NCBI RefSeq assembly: GCF_002287175.1
Contig: NZ_LMVM01000023.1
Coordinates: 149,921 to 181,920 of the forward strand
Reading direction: 5' to 3'
Length of the DNA: 32,000 nucleotides
From: Methanobacterium bryantii
Lineage (GTDB): Archaea; Methanobacteriota; Methanobacteria; Methanobacteriales; Methanobacteriaceae
The position numbers and the translations under genes are program-made. Every line of letters begins with the position of its first letter. The stretch's first letter is position 1. The notes under the pieces are model-generated. The model was not told the origin of the DNA. It worked only from the letters and a program-made list of their open reading frames with translations, and made no database searches. Below are positions 1,162 to 31,513 of this stretch, in pieces.

Positions 1162-1204
1162 GAAAATCGAAGATTTTCGAACATTAAAAATCAAAGATTT
1201 TTAA
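1162..1204. repeat. Pair of short hairpins of the same family between convergent genes
   Basis: The stems are 1162-1178 GAAAATC-gaa-GATTTTC and 1184-1204 TTAAAAATC-aaa-GATTTTTAA. The second overlaps the DUF116 stop codon. Confidence 0.7.
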
Positions 1205-2579: not shown

Positions 2580-2730
2580 TGGTCCTCCAACTGTACACAT
2601 ATTATCACCAATTCTGCTTATGTAATCAGTATTATTTATTCTTTATGATGTAAATTTTAATAAAGAAGTTCAAATTAATAGTGATTTAAAAACTATTATG
2701 TCCATGATCCCCTGTTTATATGTCATATAT

Positions 2731-2935
2731 TGAAAAATCTAGGATTTTTCACATTAAAATAAAAATTTTCAATCTTTACATATTTACAAAAATATGTTCT
2801 GTGAACTGGAAAACACGAAGTGTTTGCGGTTGAAAATCTTCGATTTTAAACCGGAAAAATTTTCTATTTTTCTGTCACAAAACCTTTGGTTTTGTGAACA
2901 TGCAAACCTGAGCGTAAATAAATGTTGTTATTTAC
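2731..2935. repeat. Cluster of seven short hairpins of the same family
   Basis: Stems read directly from the sequence:
- 2731-2751 TGAAAAATC-tag-GATTTTTCA
- 2778-2797 ACATATT-tacaaa-AATATGT
- 2811-2825 AAACAC-gaa-GTGTTT
- 2833-2847 AAAATC-ttc-GATTTT
- 2854-2872 GAAAAAT-tttct-ATTTTTC
- 2876-2896 CACAAAACC-ttt-GGTTTTGTG
- 2914-2935 GTAAATAA-atgttg-TTATTTAC, which overlaps the methyltransferase stop codon. Confidence 0.75.
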
Positions 2936-3728
2936 ACTTCAGTAATCGGACAATTATCACAGGAGGTATTTCATACCAATCAAATTTATGTGAATTATCC
3001 TTACATTGAAAGACAGGTTCAGCGAATCCATTAATAACAAATCCTGCTTTAAAACACGTTTTGAACAACTGTGATAATGGTCTGTGATAATATAATTGAG
3101 GTACAGGCTGGTTTACAATTCCTATTCCTTCATGAACGCGAGGATTAATATATTCAAATAAATGAACACCCTTTCTTACACAAATTTCATTACCCGCGTC
3201 CTCTGTTTCCACAACCGTTCTCATAGAAGGAGATTGAAAACAAGGATGCATTATTGAAAATACAAATATTCCATTTATTTTAAGTAATTCATATACCATA
3301 TCCAGAAGTGGAACGACGTCAGCAATATCCATAATTGCCATATTGGACACTGCTTTATCAAATTCGCCAAAATTTTTCAATTTCATTAGTTCTTCATAGT
3401 TTGTTGCGTCAATAACTAAAAAATCTATCTTATTTAGATAATCAAAACAGCGTTTTTGTGCATTTTCAATCATTTTACTGCTATAATCAAATGCAGTCAC
3501 TTTAGCTCCAAGTTCAACTAACCTTTTTGAAAAATTTCCATTACCACAGGCTATATCCAGAACTTTATCTTCAGGACTAATAGAAAGAAGTCTTTCTGTT
3601 TCTGGCCTTATAATTTCTCTATGAAACTGATTACTGTACTCTCCCATCTTATTATCCCAAAAATCTGCGTTTTTCTCCCATCTCTTTTTGCTTTCATCAA
3701 CAGTATCTGCCCAGTTGCTCATATTCAC
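2928..3728 (-). CDS. Class I SAM-dependent methyltransferase
   Basis: Motif I is VLDIACGNGNFS, followed by an acidic post-I residue (AFDYS) and DKAVSNMAIMD. The spacing is typical of the Methyltransf_11/25 type. Confidence 0.85.
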   Translation of the reverse strand: MNMSNWADTVDESKKRWEKNADFWDNKMGEYSNQFHREIIRPETERLLSISPEDKVLDIACGNGNFSKRLVELGAKVTAFDYSSKMIENAQKRCFDYLNKIDFLVIDATNYEELMKLKNFGEFDKAVSNMAIMDIADVVPLLDMVYELLKINGIFVFSIMHPCFQSPSMRTVVETEDAGNEICVRKGVHLFEYINPRVHEGIGIVNQPVPQLYYHRPLSQLFKTCFKAGFVINGFAEPVFQCKDNSHKFDWYEIPPVIIVRLLKCK

Positions 3729-3948
3729 ATCCCCAAATAAATTATCAATAGATACACCCCATATCTATTGATAGCCTTTCCCTAACTCTTATCAAACTAC
3801 ATTATTTTATTTTCCTTAAATTTCTAGATAACCGCCAGTTATTGGTTAAAATAATATTATTGATAATATATTTATGGATCAAATTTATAGTATTAATACT
3901 AACAAAAGTTCTAATTTAATAAATTAAAATTATTTCACAATAGAAACG

Positions 3949-26176: not shown

Positions 26177-26680
26177 ATATAGCCTTTTTATAACTTTTAA
26201 CTTTGTTTTAATGTCATAATATAGATTTATTTTATACTAAATCTAATTTAAGTATTTAGAGTTTAAAATTAGTCTAGTTACATTCATATTTATATTAAAA
26301 TTTTTAAAAAAACAACATAAACATTAATAATTAATTTATGTAAAAACTAGTTAATATCTATTTCTTTAAAACATATTAGTTATCTAATAACTATCCTTAA
26401 ATTTACAAACATAACTGAAGCTACTAAAATTCCCAAAAAATCATTTTAACACAAATAGAATACCTGCAAAGTTTATTTAGGAATTATAACAACACTAGCG
26501 GAATTATAAAAGTAATGAGTATGACCTCTTTTGTTATACAACATTTAAAATAAACTGATTTATCCAAAATACTAATTGAAAGAGTTCACCCCAAATATCT
26601 TATTTCAATAACCGCATAATGTGTCTTAAATACTAAAAAGAGCTTTAAGCGTACTTTTTTTGAGGATTAAAATCAAAATA

Positions 26681-26687
26681 TTTATAT
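26681..26687 (+). promoter_or_regulatory. Candidate TATA box for the first PMBR/transglutaminase-like gene
   Basis: TTTATAT follows an A-rich tract. It sits at the same offset (+210 from the start of the conserved segment) as TTTATAA at 29294-29300 in the second copy. Confidence 0.35.
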
Positions 26688-26804
26688 GATATGGAATATT
26701 AACTATTTTCTACCCATAGAAAAAAAACCTTAATTGAATTTTTACATGTTTGTGAAATATTTTTTATATTTTGCAACCAGAAAAATTAAAAAAATTTTCC
26801 ATGA

Positions 26805-28313
26805 TTGGGCATTGGAGGCGTTATAATTAAGAAAAAACTGCCTTTTGCAGTTCTACTAATACTTGGCTTATTCCTGGCAAGTATAGCTGGCGCGAGCGCG
26901 GCAGATGTAGGCACTGCACAATCACAGGCTGTTAATAACAGCACTGTGCAAGAAAATGCTGGAATACACACAAATGATACATACAATGAAAACGAATCGG
27001 TTGCAACGCAAAATTCAACCGATGAAAATATAACGGAGGGTACGAGTACTGCAACCTCAAATACCAGTACCAATCAAACCACCGTTAAAACAGAACCCGT
27101 TGCACAAGATATAGCAAATACAAGTGCTGATCAAACTGCAACAACTCTCACAGTGACTTCAACAAACTCCACCAGCAAAAATTCAACAGTTTCAGAAACT
27201 AACACAAAAAACGCAGTTTCAACTGCATTAAACAACAGTCAAAATTCAACAAGCACAAAAACTAACACATGGAATAATACAACCAGTACTCAAACTCAAA
27301 GTACTGGGTATGATACTATCAAAAATAATGATAGTTATCAAAAAGCAGCTGCAGGAGAAACGAAAGTTACCTCCAAAAGCTTTACTGCAAAGCAAATCAA
27401 TAATGCAGCGGCAAAAGTTAAGGCATACGTTGAAACCAACCACAGACTTCCAAACTATGTGACAATTGGTACAATCCAAGTGCAAATGTCTGATTTCCTG
27501 AAACTATTAACTGCAAATATACTGCAGTTATACAATAAGAAAACAAGTTCAATAACACTAAAAAGTATAAACAGTGCAGCAAAACCTAGCGAAAGTGTTA
27601 AAAGCGGTACTATGACCAAATCATGTTATTTAGACCTTGCTAAAAGAGTGAATGTATTTATAAATACAAATGGTGCTTTACCAAATTATGCAACAAGCAG
27701 TCTTGGCAAACTGAATTATAAATCATTAATTTACACGTTTTCCAAGGTACTTGCCTTCTACAATACAAATAGTAGATTGCCAAATTACGTTACTGTTAAA
27801 CCATGGAGTAAAGTTGGAACTTCAGATACATCAAATTCATCAACACCAGTACCTGCATCATTACAGCAGTATCTTAAATCTACTACAAACTGTCAGGTAA
27901 ACAACGCACAAATTCAAGCACTGGCAAAATCAATAACAAGCGGTAAATCATCCACATATGCTAAAGCAGCAGCAATATTTAACTGGGTACGAGATAACAT
28001 AGGCTATTCATTCTACTACAATACCAAATATGGCGCAGTTGGAACATTATCTTCAAAAACAGCCAATTGTGTCGATACATCCCACTTGTTAATAGCACTT
28101 GAAAGGGCCGCAGGAATTCCTGCACGATACGAGCATGTTTATGCTAAATTCTCAAGTGGCACATGGTATGGGCATGTTATTGCTCAGGTTTGGGTTAATG
28201 GTAAATGGTACTATGCAGATGCAAGTAGCTCCAGAAATACATTTGGTGTTATAAATAACTGGAATACAACAACAGCAACAGTATACGGTACATATACATC
28301 CATATCTTTCTAA
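26805..28313 (+). CDS. Secreted pseudomurein-binding-repeat protein with a C-terminal transglutaminase-like (Cys-His-Asp) domain, copy 1
   Basis: The signal peptide is KKKLPFAVLLILGLFLASIAGASA. A long S/T/N-rich linker follows. There are three repeats of the type [42 protein letters not shown] and FYNTNSRLPNYVTV. The core is NCVDTSH (Cys 28068-28070), GHVIAQV (His 28173-28175) and YADAS (Asp 28218-28220). Confidence 0.85.
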   Translation: MGIGGVIIKKKLPFAVLLILGLFLASIAGASAADVGTAQSQAVNNSTVQENAGIHTNDTYNENESVATQNSTDENITEGTSTATSNTSTNQTTVKTEPVAQDIANTSADQTATTLTVTSTNSTSKNSTVSETNTKNAVSTALNNSQNSTSTKTNTWNNTTSTQTQSTGYDTIKNNDSYQKAAAGETKVTSKSFTAKQINNAAAKVKAYVETNHRLPNYVTIGTIQVQMSDFLKLLTANILQLYNKKTSSITLKSINSAAKPSESVKSGTMTKSCYLDLAKRVNVFINTNGALPNYATSSLGKLNYKSLIYTFSKVLAFYNTNSRLPNYVTVKPWSKVGTSDTSNSSTPVPASLQQYLKSTTNCQVNNAQIQALAKSITSGKSSTYAKAAAIFNWVRDNIGYSFYYNTKYGAVGTLSSKTANCVDTSHLLIALERAAGIPARYEHVYAKFSSGTWYGHVIAQVWVNGKWYYADASSSRNTFGVINNWNTTTATVYGTYTSISF

Positions 28314-28325
28314 TAGAAAAATAAG

Positions 28326-28465
28326 ATGTTAAAACCGTTGCAGTAGGAGTAATGTGAATATAATGGCACTTTGTGCTGAAACCATATAAATTCCACTAGC
28401 AACTTGAGTGCCCATCTAGCAGCTGAAAATTGTTAATACATCAGACAACACTAAAATTGGATAAA
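28326..28465 (+). pseudogene. Remnant of a PepSY-protein gene, paralogue of 30786-31184
   Basis: The nucleotide sequence aligns by eye to the 5' third of 30786-31184. Examples: GTTGCAGTAGGAGTAATG vs GTTGCAGTAGTGGTAATG, GAAACCATATAAATTCCACTAGCAA vs GAAACCACATAAATTCCACCAGCAA, and CATCAGACAACAC vs CATCAGATAACAC. It stops after 6 codons (ATG TTA AAA CCG TTG CAG TAG) and the PepSY domain is missing. Confidence 0.55.
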
Positions 28466-28512
28466 CACTGGTAAATCGACATAAATGCTTTAACTAACAA
28501 AAAATGTTGGAG

Positions 28513-28789
28513 ACACTAAATTTAGTGTATTCCTCTCAAATCGGTTTAAACTGGAAAAATCTCAAAGAGATTTTATGCTCGAAAATTCCCTCAAAAACTG
28601 AAAGTTTTTGACGCGATAAACACTTGTATTTGTCAGCTATGAATTTTCCGCACCCTAGGAAACATAGTTTCCTGGGCCCCAAAATCATAGATTTTGAAGG
28701 CCCCAAACACGGCGTGTTTGAGGCCGAAGAATCTATTGATTCTCGGCCCCAGAAATTCACAGAATTTCTGAGGGGTCCTTTTTCTTTTT
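28513..28789. repeat. Array of about 9 consecutive short hairpins ending in a T tract
   Basis: Stems read directly from the sequence:
- 28513-28528 ACACTAAA/TTTAGTGT
- 28556-28574 AAAATCTC-aaa-GAGATTTT
- 28591-28611 TCAAAAACT-gaa-AGTTTTTGA
- 28615-28634 imperfect
- 28657-28673 AGGAAAC-ata-GTTTCCT
- 28680-28696 CAAAATC-ata-GATTTTG
- 28704-28720 CAAACAC-ggc-GTGTTTG
- 28724-28746 CCGA(A)GAATC-tatt-GATTCTCGG
- 28750-28770 CAGAAATTC-aca-GAATTTCTG
The array is followed by GGGGTCCTTTTTCTTTTT. Confidence 0.8.
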
Positions 28790-29293
28790 AGTCTTGAAAA
28801 ATTAGAATCCAAATAATCTCCTCTAATTTTTAATATATTTGTCTCGACATATTCACAGCATCTAAATTTTCAATTTTGTATTAATCTTGTTTGGGCCATG
28901 CCCTATTCCTGAAATTTTAGTATTAACAAATGAGGAATAATAATTAAACTATACAAAAAAAAGTTAATACGCAGCTTTTTTAGTAAATTTTTTAACATAA
29001 TACTTAATAATTAATTAATAAAAAGGAATAAAATTCTTAAAATTTCAAATAACTTCGTTTAACCCAAATAGAGTGCTAATAGAGTTTATTTAATGATTAC
29101 CCCAATTATGCCCAAAGTATAAAAGTAATGTACGTGCCTCTTTTTGCCAAATAATGTTTAAAATAAGGCAATTTGCTGAAAATAATAATTGAGAGAGTTC
29201 ATCCCAAAGATCTTATTTAAATAACTCCACAGCGTGTCCTAAATTGTAAAAAGAGCTCAATAAGCGCCTTTTTTGGGTATTAAAAACAAAAGA

Positions 29294-29300
29294 TTTATAA
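29294..29300 (+). promoter_or_regulatory. Candidate TATA box for the second PMBR/transglutaminase-like gene
   Basis: TTTATAA is conserved in position with 26681-26687 and lies about 60 nt upstream of the ORF start. Confidence 0.35.
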
Positions 29301-29359
29301 GGTATAGCACATTAACTACTCCATACCCATAGGAAAACTCTGATTGAGTTTTCCCATGA

Positions 29360-30757
29360 TTGGAAATCGGAGGCGGTATAATTACGAGGAAATTGCTTTT
29401 TGCAGTCCTATTAATATCCAGTCTATCTTTGACTGGTATAACTGGCGCAAGCGCGACAGATGTAGGCACTGCACAAACACAGGCTGTTAATAACAGCACT
29501 GTGCAAGAAAAAGCCAATATACAAATAAATAATACATGCAACACAAACAAATCGGTTGCAACGCAAAATTCAACCGACGCAAGTGTAAAAACAGTGCAGA
29601 ATACAAGTACTGCCATATCAAATGTCAGTACCAACCAAACCACCGTTAAAACACAAGCAGTAGCACAGAATACAGTAAGTACAAAGGATAATCAAACTGC
29701 AGTAACTTCAACAGCGACTTCAATAAATTCAACCAGCAAAAATTCAACAAATACAACCAGTACTCAAACACAAGAAGCAGCTGCAGGAGAAACAAAAGTA
29801 TCTAAAAACTTTACTGTAAGCCAAATCACAGATGCCGCAGCTAGGGTCAAAGCATACGTTGAAACCAATCACAGACTTCCAAACTATGTGACAATTGGTA
29901 CAACCCAGGTTGAAATGCCTGAGTTTTTAAAACTACTGACTGCAGGTTTACTACAGTTAAACAACGGAACAACAACATCAATAACACTTAAAGATATAAA
30001 CAGTGCAGCAAAACCTAGTGAAAGTGTTAAAAGTGGTAATATAAATAAAGCAGGTTATTTAGACCTTGCTAAAAGAGTGAATGCGTTTATAGATGCAAAT
30101 GGTGCTTTACCAAATTATGCAACAAGCAGTCTTGGTAAATTAAATTATCAATCTTTAATTTACACATTTTCCAAGATAATGGCTTTCTATAAAACGAACG
30201 AACGGTTACCAAGTTATGTTACAGTAAAATCATGGAGCACAGTTGGAACTTCAAGTACATCAACTTCAAATTCTTCAAACACATCTACATCGGTACCTGC
30301 ATCACTTCAGCAGTATCTTAAATCTACTACAAACTGTCAGGTAACCAATTCACAGATCCAAGCACTGGCAAAATCAATAACAAGCGGTAAAACTTCCACG
30401 TACGATAAAGCAGTGGCTATATTTAACTGGGTAAGAGATAACATAGGTTATTCCTTCTATTATAACACCAAATACGGTGCTGTAGGCACTTTAAGCAAAA
30501 AAACTGGAAACTGTGTTGATACAGCTCACCTTTTAATAGCACTTGAAAGGGCCGCAGGAATACCAGCACGATACGAACACGTTAAAGCTAAATTCACAAG
30601 CGGTAACTGGTACGGGCACGTTATTGCCCAAGTATACGTAAACGGCAAATGGTACAATGCAGACGCAACCAGTTCTAAAAACACGTTTGGTGTTATTAAA
30701 AACTGGAATACAGGAACAGCTACATACAAAGGTACATATGCTACATTGCCTTTCTAA
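29360..30757 (+). CDS. Secreted pseudomurein-binding-repeat protein with a C-terminal transglutaminase-like domain, copy 2
   Basis: The architecture matches 26805-28313: signal peptide [21 protein letters not shown], a shorter S/T/N linker, three ...LPNYVT/LPNYAT/LPSYVT repeats, then NCVDTAH, GHVIAQV and NADAT. Confidence 0.85.
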
Positions 30758-30785
30758 ATCTAGTTAAATAAAAAAATGAGGTTGA

Positions 30786-31184
30786 ATGATGATTAAAAAA
30801 TCAATAGTTGCAGTAGTGGTAATGCTGGCTGCAGCGGCACTGGTATTCGGTGCTTCTGGAAACCACATAAATTCCACCAGCAATTCTAATCAGGGACAAC
30901 AGTCATCTGTTACTGGCAGCAGTTCATCCAGTAACAATACATCAGATAGCGACAAAACATCAGATAACACAACTAAACCAAAGATAACTTCAGAAGAAGC
31001 CCAAAAATTAGCTCAAAAATACATTGACGTAGAAGGAGCAACCGCAGGAACACCTAAATTGATCAAAACTGATGGTCAATACATATACGTGGTTCCTGTT
31101 ATCGACAACGGAACAAATGTTGGTGAAATAGACATTAACGCTATAACTGGCAAAAACGTTGGAGGAGCAGGTGGAGCACCTTAA
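30786..31184 (+). CDS. Small secreted PepSY-domain-like protein
   Basis: The N-terminal hydrophobic segment is IVAVVVMLAAAALVFGA, followed by an S/N/T-rich linker. The C-terminal part is ITSEEAQKLAQKYIDVEG...YIYVVPVIDNGTNVGEIDINAITGK, typical of PepSY. A GAGGT sequence lies just upstream of the ATG. Confidence 0.7.
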   Translation: MMIKKSIVAVVVMLAAAALVFGASGNHINSTSNSNQGQQSSVTGSSSSSNNTSDSDKTSDNTTKPKITSEEAQKLAQKYIDVEGATAGTPKLIKTDGQYIYVVPVIDNGTNVGEIDINAITGKNVGGAGGAP

Positions 31185-31513
31185 GGTGTTTTCCCAAATT
31201 GATTACACTGAAAAGATCTCTTATGAGATCTTTTCCTATTTTTTTATTTTAAAATTGCCCAATTTATTATCTTCTTTAAAATTTATTATCACACTTTTAA
31301 GGCAGAAAAAGTCTGTAAAGTTTAAAAAAATAAAATAACTTGATAGTACATAATTTTAAATATTTGAGTTCATAGTTTATTACATAGTTATAAATAATTA
31401 AAGAAGTTAACATACCTAAACACGATAAAGCAGATAAAATATTTTATCTCAATTTTATAAATAACACATGGCGAAGTAATTAGATTTATTAAAACCACAA
31501 ATAAGTGATAAGA

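Follow-up and report, generated by a model that had tools for sequence, protein, structure and literature searches.

A hypervariable cluster of perfect hairpins between a terminator-like hairpin and its T-tract in Methanobacterium, a possible archaeal counterpart of bacterial palindrome clusters

What is a run of back-to-back hairpins doing behind a dead gene in a Methanobacterium genome? The array in question occupies positions 28513-28789 of a 32-kb stretch of Methanobacterium DNA (the window; coordinates are window positions unless another locus is named). On either side of it is a PMBR/transglutaminase-like gene; these two genes (26805..28313 and 29360..30757) are tandem paralogues, and an intact PepSY gene (30786..31184) follows the second alone. 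On balance, I lean towards reading the array as a cluster of perfect palindromes akin to the repetitive extragenic palindromes and bacterial interspersed mosaic elements (REP/BIME) of bacteria. On this reading it sits between an old terminator hairpin and its T-tract, owes its extreme variability to replication and repair errors centred on the hairpins, exchanges blocks with other clusters, and may bring a secondary benefit at the RNA level.

The 277 nt of the array hold eight perfect hairpins (stem of at least 6 bp, loop of 3-4 nt), six of the eight with stems of at least 7 bp, whereas 300 dinucleotide shuffles of the region contained 0.27 on average and never more than two. Folded as RNA, a check that the original prediction had proposed, the array gives z = -7.7 on the plus strand and -6.8 on the minus strand, a similarity to be expected of perfect palindromic stems. 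The array opens with a 16-nt perfect palindrome, ACACTAAATTTAGTGT (hairpin 1, 28513..28528), and the hairpin AAAATCTC(aaa)GAGATTTT (hairpin 2, 28556..28574). These are followed by a core of about 200 nt (28575..28775) and, on the plus strand, by TCC and the oligo-T tract TTTTTCTTTTT (28776..28789). The first part of the core is a split outer hairpin (28581..28648), nested in the minimum free energy fold, whose arms GAAAATTC (28581-88) and GAATTTTC (28641-48) flank the hairpin TCAAAAACT(gaa)AGTTTTTGA (28591..28611) and a degenerate hairpin (28615..28634). The rest is a five-hairpin module with GGCC(CC) feet (28654..28775, plus strand; CCTAGGAAAC.., CAAAATC.., GGCCCCAAACACG.., GGCCGAAGAATC.., CCCCAGAAATTC..GAGGGG). 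The 3' half of the array is accordingly a series of units of about 24 nt, each GGCC(CC)-palindrome-GA, in which neighbouring hairpins have their GGCC feet in common, and it ends in GGGGTCC and then TTTTTCTTTTT. G+C content is 0.35-0.37 in the array and 0.25-0.31 downstream, and hairpin words of the array are seen again at 1162-1204 and 2731-2897. The word AAAATCNNNGATTTT has five exact sites and one site with a single mismatch in the window, where about 0.74 would be expected with at most one mismatch, and the core word AAAATC-N3-GATTTT occurs five times in the 32 kb. The longest direct repeat within the array is 9 nt, hairpin units measure 15-27 nt, and every cluster in the window is intergenic. 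Thus the original prediction described the array well: its nine or so hairpins correspond to eight perfect ones, one degenerate one and a long-range pair of arms, and its regular GC-spaced 3' half ending in GGGGTCC and T5 runs, its locally raised G+C content and its vocabulary of stems reused at 1162-1204 and 2731-2935 were all recovered, the last within the slightly narrower limits given above.

Did the array break the PepSY gene beside it? The two paralogous modules form a tandem duplication of about 2.6 kb and about 80% identity (26325-28512 against 28938-31188) that holds the transglutaminase/PMBR gene, PepSY and a downstream hairpin. The duplication is common to four Methanobacterium lineages, in every one of which PepSY copy 1 has decayed. 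Besides the window these are L125, L126/L127 and L128/L129/L130, whose loci were found through homologues of the upstream protein (86-89% identity) and have the same gene order. By blastn, the match between the module copies (28337-28402 with 30807-30883) stops at 28402. The terminal PepSY codons are nevertheless readable at 28474-28512 in frame 2 ('IDINALTNKK' against 'IDINAITGKN' in the intact copy). The decayed paralogue (28337..28512, plus strand) is frame-disrupted, with an internal deletion of about 250 nt and its 3' end kept. In a pairwise alignment of the two copies, hairpin 1 matches the 12-nt palindrome CACCTTAAGGTG (31177-31188) that contains the intact stop codon. Hairpin 2 matches the single hairpin at 31210-31235 after the intact PepSY, which with its T7 run forms a terminator-like feature on the plus strand (31210..31250, GAAAAGATCTC(ttat)GAGATCTTTTC). 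The tract TCCT(A)TTTTTCTTTTT (28776-28789) is homologous to 31234-31250, where the T-tract of copy 2 starts at 31236 directly after the hairpin. Since the 3' codons, hairpins 1 and 2 and the T-tract all have homologues in copy 2, PepSY copy 1 is a long-dead pseudogene in which an internal stretch was deleted and the 3' end retained. By the same comparison 28575-28775, which is missing after the intact copy, is extra DNA between an ancestral terminator-like hairpin and its T-tract. Furthermore, the remnant carries the same scars in L125, L126 and L128 as in the window, including the internal deletion that shortened the gene, and therefore the decay is old and the array is not its cause. The claim that the array sits exactly where PepSY is truncated thus has to be given up, because the array lies downstream of a 3' end that survives. 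Of the insertion or replacement that was also suggested, one part stands, in that the core is extra relative to the intact copy; PepSY itself was neither replaced nor truncated by the array.

The orthologous loci, comparison with which had likewise been proposed, turned out to have colinear flanks around a core that differs by whole hairpins. The left flank (the pseudogene with hairpins 1 and 2) is 92-95% identical in pairwise comparisons with 1-3% gapped columns, and the right flank (582 nt to the next gene) is 89-98% identical with about 0%. The core has 50-78% gapped columns, and its identity is not comparable. From the pseudogene end to the T-tract there are four perfect hairpins in L125, six in L126, eight in the window and thirteen in L128. 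The contrast is sharpest between L126 and L128, in which the flank is 98% identical without a single indel in 584 nt while the core differs by three blocks of about 48, about 100 and 52 nt; each block consists of whole hairpins, and the junctions share TT, CCC and AGG only. All lineages keep hairpin 1 (identical in all four), hairpin 2 (in which only the loop varies among L125, L126 and L128), the outer arms GAAAAT(T)C / GA(A)TTTTC, a hairpin CAAACAC(ggn)GTGTTTG and the T-tract, beside which the last hairpin of every lineage has a GC-rich foot. The hairpin at 28591..28611 is present in the window lineage only.

This pattern of change bears on whether the array encodes a protein. A 59-aa open reading frame (ORF) at 28633..28812(-) is called as a gene in the NCBI record (L003 11829..12008), a 74-aa ORF lies at 28536..28760(-), and frames are open on both strands. 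However, it is the hairpin arms that make up both ORFs, the corresponding stretch of L125, L126 and L128 has no called gene, the block indels among orthologues (about 48, about 100 and 52 nt) would break any frame, and no Pfam hit is on record. A coding role therefore has next to nothing in its favour, and the called 59-aa gene is almost certainly spurious. The remark of the original prediction that the 74-aa ORF merely reads through the stems applies to the 59-aa ORF as well.

A discrete structured non-coding RNA, multi-branched and about 125-270 nt long, or a guide-RNA-like array in the style of CRISPR or TIGR, would explain the very strong fold z-score. A consensus fold of three copies also pairs three hairpins of the shared block fully and a closing helix except for one end pair, and conserved frames with variable cores superficially recall repeat-spacer arrays. 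Against this, searches with Rfam at gathering and permissive thresholds gave no match in the window or in 16 related loci (best sub-threshold E = 0.3), and perfect palindromes fold equally well on both strands. A tRNA scan found nothing. A conserved multi-hairpin RNA, which the original prediction had offered as an alternative, is unlikely because close relatives, with flanks 89-93% identical, retain only four hairpins. As for guides, TIGR units have large loops with box C/D motifs and two spacers of 8-12 nt, beside an adjacent Nop-domain Tas gene (PMC12045711). Loops of 3-4 nt are too small for such motifs and spacers, and a TIGR stem-loop array was rejected on these loops and on the lack of a called Nop-domain gene nearby. 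A CRISPR array was rejected as well, as CRISPR repeats are identical and 23-50 nt long whereas the longest direct repeat here is 9 nt, and no cas gene is called nearby. Taken together, the RNA and guide-array readings seem very improbable.

How, then, do such clusters grow and shrink? As far as alignments can tell, additions sit in unpaired places (loops and feet) of older hairpins, and losses fuse arms from hairpins that resemble each other. Between the outer arms (28581-88 / 28641-48) L125 has one hairpin, L126 three and L128 five, against one perfect and one degenerate hairpin in the window. L075, a locus from a Methanobacterium metagenome-assembled genome (MAG), carries two hairpins within GCAAAAC..GTTTTGC; the orthologous metagenome contig L124 has this pair as a simple hairpin. 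A GCGAAGC mini-hairpin is whole in L072 and L108 and interrupted by arrays in L013, L083 and L069, and in L126 four or five hairpins lie within TTGTGAAATC..GATTTCACAA, in the leader cluster of the transglutaminase/PMBR gene. Losses leave hybrids. The hairpin TTGTGAAATAT(ttttt)ATATTTTGCAA (26750..26776), in the leader of the upstream transglutaminase/PMBR gene, is a deletion scar whose two parent hairpins are still separate in L126, and L124 has a hybrid of two L075 hairpins. The G-T 'wobbles' of the leader hairpin had looked like evidence at the RNA level but were rejected as such, since a deletion between two similar hairpins left them behind.

The leader cluster is a second variable hairpin cluster at this locus. 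It lies at 26720-26800 (L126 5788-5990), between a conserved TATA-like box (26680-26690) and the transglutaminase/PMBR start, and so is probably in the gene leader. It counts about three hairpins in the window, five in L125, about ten in L126 and five in L128, and copy 2 has one (29332-29354).

Smaller changes affect both arms together. Relative to copy 2, hairpin 2 has lost one G together with its partner C, the stop-codon palindrome differs between the copies yet is still perfect, and in the shared five-hairpin module one pair has changed from A-T to G-C. Loops vary faster than arms and may be inverted (ata against tat; ggc/ggt/gct; tcc/tct), which fits the higher substitution load reported for the spacers of inverted repeats than for their arms across genomes (PMC13155455). 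One L128-specific block has at its end the sequence of its left flank in inverted form (CCTTTGGTTT ... AAACCAAAAG), which fits template switching, a process shown elsewhere to create and maintain hairpins (PMC8794818). Together these changes look like the marks expected of template switching or slippage at extruded hairpins.

The sequence of events that I propose begins with the old PepSY stop-codon palindrome and the terminator hairpin, which would be the first two palindromes, the other seven or so having been added before the T-tract. The driver would act at the DNA level, with extruded hairpins stalling or breaking replication. Repair by template switching or microhomology-mediated copying would then mirror changes from arm to arm, and the same repair could make new inverted copies, delete between similar arms, and import blocks from other clusters by using shared arm words (AAAATC / GATTTT and the like) as anchors. 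Transcribed with the upstream gene, the result would be a chain of hairpins ending in a GC-footed hairpin and a U-tract, which might aid 3'-end formation or protection. Any such benefit of the array at the RNA level would be secondary at most.

Import of blocks is suggested by copies at other loci. The module at 28654-28775 recurs in L075, where it is 81% identical and keeps the order of its five hairpins and their feet; genes for a coiled-coil protein and a UvrD-like helicase flank it there, and its orientation to the upstream gene is that seen in the window. L124 has its last three hairpins and the hybrid at 85% identity. The module copy of L128 is about 90% identical to those of L075 and L124, differences across copies (81-93% identity) lie mostly in loops, and module size differs between copies (120 against 170 nt). 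L075, with L124 in part, is the only other locus at which the module was found in one metagenome scan and about 1.3 Mb of related sequence; the scan, made with the central module hairpin, gave a single match, an orthologue of L075. The MFS genes of the window and L075, compared to gauge the distance between the species, proved not to be orthologous (28% identity). Furthermore, comparison of 64 arrays all against all gave many multi-hairpin segments of 40-110 nt and 78-96% identity that are common to different loci and genomes, and therefore blocks move or get copied between clusters.

Such sharing is also what one would expect if the hairpins or blocks were non-autonomous mobile elements, moved by an enzyme encoded elsewhere (a RAYT, a single-strand transposase of the IS200-IS605 type or a structure-specific integrase) that targets single-stranded hairpin loops. 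The block at an unrelated locus of another species (81-90% identical, oriented alike), the many other common segments, and the repeated additions in hairpin loops all speak for this, and the strict C-NNN-G apex could be a recognition feature. So does a recurrent element with conserved ends in five Methanobacterium genomes. This element runs from CTCCGCAGCG(AAGCGAGG) to GGATTTTTTGATCCACCTTTTTTTGAAAAAAGG with zero to six internal hairpins, which lie in the loop of the GCGAAGC mini-hairpin (L013 2340-2470; L083 3973-4100; L069 4795-5023; L072 5436-5552; L108, minus strand), and its L013 copy is flanked by a 21-nt direct repeat, GTTTATAAACTGTAAACTTTT.

However, no transposase or nuclease was found among the genes called within 10 kb on either side of the array, and between the inverted arrays of a further locus, L078, there is a membrane protein gene only. 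There is no fixed-length target duplication, and junction microhomologies are 2-3 nt. Unit frames are locus-specific: among about 1.3 Mb of fetched DNA, the uppS locus alone has the frame GTTGA..GAAC.TTA, and therefore amplification in place is favoured. No known repeat family bound by a transposase comes near these hairpins in sequence diversity, and blastn of the array against phage and plasmid collections gave no match. Movement by such an enzyme thus seems to me quite unlikely. Two more specific candidates were rejected: a miniature inverted-repeat transposable element (MITE), as there are no terminal inverted repeats beyond the hairpin arms and no fixed target-site duplication, the junctions sharing TT, CCC and AGG; and an omega-RNA or palindrome-associated element of IS200/IS605, as no tnpA, tnpB or insertion sequence lies within 10 kb on either side. 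The original prediction had favoured a mobile MITE- or REP-like element and proposed searching relatives for copies with target-site duplications or terminal inverted repeats. What remains of this is a repeated, REP-like family, with a module that recurs in L075 and partly in L124; the MITE-like part has fallen away, since the only inverted repeats are hairpin arms and no duplication of fixed length was seen.

The array belongs to a much larger class. I define this class by a perfect stem of 6-12 bp, a 3-nt loop and a 5'-C..G-3' closing pair. In 107 kb of Methanobacterium loci chosen without regard to hairpins there are 36 such C..G-closed triloop hairpins, against 0-2 in shuffles, and one closed by G..C. 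In the larger set of loci, hairpins with 3-nt loops number 323 against about 76 in shuffles; the excess is specific to those with a 5'-C..G-3' closing pair (239 against about 14), while those with 5'-G..C-3' (11 against about 13) are no more frequent than in shuffles. The four commonest loop pairs, read on either strand, are GAA/TTC, AAA/TTT, ATA/TAT and AGA/TCT, most hairpins have an A-rich 5' arm and a T-rich 3' arm, and stems are highly diverse. Their density of 0.34 per kb in the 107 kb extrapolates to roughly a thousand per genome, so that Methanobacterium genomes appear to contain small perfect palindromes of a single structural class in numbers of that order.

A scan of 185,579 genomes, one per species, for two AAAATC-NNN-GATTTT hairpins within 30 nt gave at least 120 matches. 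Among the 120 matches listed, 47 are in Methanobacteriaceae (Methanobacterium, Methanovirga and termite-gut Methanobrevibacter); the others include Methanosarcinales, Methanolliviera and DPANN archaea, and the remainder are mostly repeats of Bacteroidota. At the archaeal loci the pair is embedded in arrays of up to 13 different perfect hairpins. L076, L098, L100, L113 and L119 contain arrays in the same style, with different perfect C-NNN-G hairpins and short regular spacers; these loci come from Methanolliviera, Methanosarcinales, a Woesearchaeota MAG and two unclassified archaea, one of them a euryarchaeon, and therefore the phenomenon extends beyond Methanobacteriaceae. Matches in viral contigs (the giant-virus MAG contigs L138, L143, L147, L151, L161 and L167) were set aside as simple 24-nt tandem repeats and are probably unrelated; their unit is GAAAAATC(nnn)GATTTTTC followed by gccag, in up to nine identical copies.

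Several arrays are made of tandem units in which a conserved frame surrounds a wholly different palindromic core. The frames are GGCCCC..GA in the window, GTAT..ATAC gg TTAC..GTAA acat in L078, and GTTGA..GAACC TTAA..TTAA downstream of uppS. The uppS locus shows such units in several states. In the window, a two-hairpin unit (1162..1204) lies in the spacer (1133-1204) between convergent uppS and DUF116 genes; L177 has one hairpin there, L178 has one two-hairpin unit like the window, and in L179/L180, whose uppS genes are 94% identical, there are four units with eight different perfect cores (L179 4781-5003). A further cluster in the window, a six-hairpin array (2731..2897), adjoins the 3' end of a gene for a class I SAM methyltransferase (2928..3728(-)), and both the gene and the array are absent from orthologous loci. 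Relative to L177 and L179, they form an insertion of about 1.15 kb in window 2600-3940, which also has a hairpin with a 12-bp stem (3743-3773) upstream of the gene. The nearest relatives of the methyltransferase are at most 71% identical and mostly from Bacillota/Clostridia, with no close relatives in Methanobacterium; the gene seems to have arrived by horizontal transfer and to have gained a hairpin array of the native type. In L078, arrays of six (7-155) and thirteen hairpins (1437-1794) flank a 322-aa membrane protein gene and are in part inverted copies of one another, the larger lying in a divergent intergenic region.

Does the cell use these hairpins in RNA? The hairpins could be selected RNA elements, the array serving as a bidirectional terminator or as a 3'-end-protecting stack for the upstream transglutaminase-like gene, and their turnover would then only mean that constraint on the choice of hairpins is loose. 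Because A-rich and U-rich arms pair, a transcript ending in the U-run would have a base-paired 3' end; A-rich 5' and T-rich 3' arms on both strands would suit a bidirectional signal. The ancestral arrangement was one hairpin with a T-tract, the hairpin and T7 of the intact copy (31210-31235) are called by a terminator scan, and in every lineage the last hairpin has its GC-rich foot beside the T-tract. The same scan does not call the last hairpin of the array (28747-28775), which is followed by TCC and T5CT5. Hairpins are about as dense in divergent intergenic regions, which contain only promoters, and they occur in the gene leader as well; they are found in all four intergenic contexts. Only about four of the twelve or so gene 3' ends in the window have them, a T-rich tract follows the outermost hairpins in 20% of cases against 17% at random nearby positions, and loops have no strand bias relative to the upstream gene (34 against 29). 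Furthermore, Term-seq in four archaea found termination by U-tracts without upstream hairpins (PMC8716108), so that archaeal termination as mapped so far needs a U-tract only. I regard selection for such RNA roles as a serious alternative, albeit an unlikely one. A terminator stack, as the original prediction had put forward, is possible at the array locus with its conserved T-tract and GC-rich foot; as a general role of the class it is not supported, given the lack of T-tract enrichment and of strand bias.

What weighs against an origin in hairpin-centred errors of replication and repair? Three observations point to a use in RNA. The array lies between the gene tail and a T5CT5 tract kept in all four lineages; another array lies at the 3' end of the apparently newly acquired methyltransferase gene, ahead of the next operon; and there is a mild enrichment just behind stop codons, where 22 of 56 first hairpins lie no more than 40 nt away (12 of 51 do so ahead of start codons). 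Other points concern the model itself. Template switching and hairpin breakage in these organisms are deduced from sequence patterns, four lineages cannot polarise most indels into gains and losses, and the genome copy number is an extrapolation. On its own the model leaves the near-exclusive C..G closing pair and the A-rich 5' arms unexplained, as it does the conserved tandem frames with fully diverged perfect cores. Finally, the five-hairpin block at an unrelated locus of another species (81-90%) could equally reflect true mobility.

Room for a more novel mechanism is left by what the model does not explain: the strict C-NNN-G apex, 5' arms rich in A, and frames that are conserved around hypervariable perfect cores. 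The clusters might be 'hairpin cassettes', conserved frames with hypervariable perfect cores that a dedicated archaeal enzyme writes into C-NNN-G apices. I consider this a long shot. If true, it would mean a new, self-nesting kind of mobile or diversifying DNA, possibly with a use at the RNA level, widespread in Methanobacteriaceae and present also in Methanosarcinales and DPANN.

Hairpin-centred replication and repair errors remain the reading towards which I lean, and the clusters matter in several ways whichever mechanism makes them. My search of the literature found no description of such arrays in Methanobacteriales. They lend themselves as a natural model of palindrome instability, in an archaeon whose replication and repair are eukaryote-like, and they differ by whole hairpins between strains 2% apart and are therefore useful strain markers. 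Should the hairpins prove to act on RNA 3' ends, they would depart from the current picture of archaeal termination as hairpin-free, and if an enzyme writes them, they would be a new kind of mobile DNA. For annotation, the PepSY pseudogene should not be described as cut by an insertion.

How do the arrays compare with known systems? Like intrinsic or bidirectional terminators, the array has a last hairpin with a GC-rich foot followed by T5CT5, and, with A-rich 5' and T-rich 3' arms, its transcripts would fold into the same shape whichever strand is read. Unlike them, hairpins of this class also lie on the promoter side and in leaders, are not enriched by T-tracts, and come in stacks of up to 13. 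With TIGR arrays, which are known in prokaryotes and archaeal viruses (PMC12045711), they have in common a tandem order and stems that are variable yet consistently palindromic; they differ in their loops of 3-4 nt and in that no adjacent Nop-domain gene is called. The resemblance to hairpins made by template switching (PMC8794818) and by quasi-palindrome correction extends to perfect stems that appear in one step, arms that change together (including the symmetric deletion of a single base pair), inverted loops (ata against tat), and an inserted block that ends in an inverted copy of its flank. That work, however, concerns isolated events in rRNA and elsewhere, whereas here there are tandem clusters of up to 13 hairpins with conserved frames and a fixed C-NNN-G apex.

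Finally, there are the REP and BIME of Enterobacteria and Pseudomonas. REP-like palindromes have been counted in a few archaea, Methanobacterium not among them, and arrays of the present kind are not described there (PMC12306157). REPs follow one imperfect consensus per family, whereas the stems here are perfect and extremely diverse, with 3-nt loops and a strict C..G closing pair. Here there is no conserved flanking tetranucleotide across units, no definable orientation and no strand bias of the loops, no RAYT transposase was found within 10 kb on either side or by the L078 arrays, and the host is an archaeon. As for likenesses, both consist of palindromes of about 20-35 nt that lie outside genes only, frequently in transcribed tails or between operon genes; both are stacked in tandem with short conserved linkers, in clusters whose copy number varies between strains (here 4-13, and 1-8 at uppS). 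Both are hot spots for further insertions, and the roles proposed for them (protection of mRNA 3' ends, termination, DNA topology) are accessory. By this analogy, the array would be the archaeal counterpart of a bacterial REP/BIME cluster, grown in the untranslated tail behind a transglutaminase-like gene and its dead PepSY.

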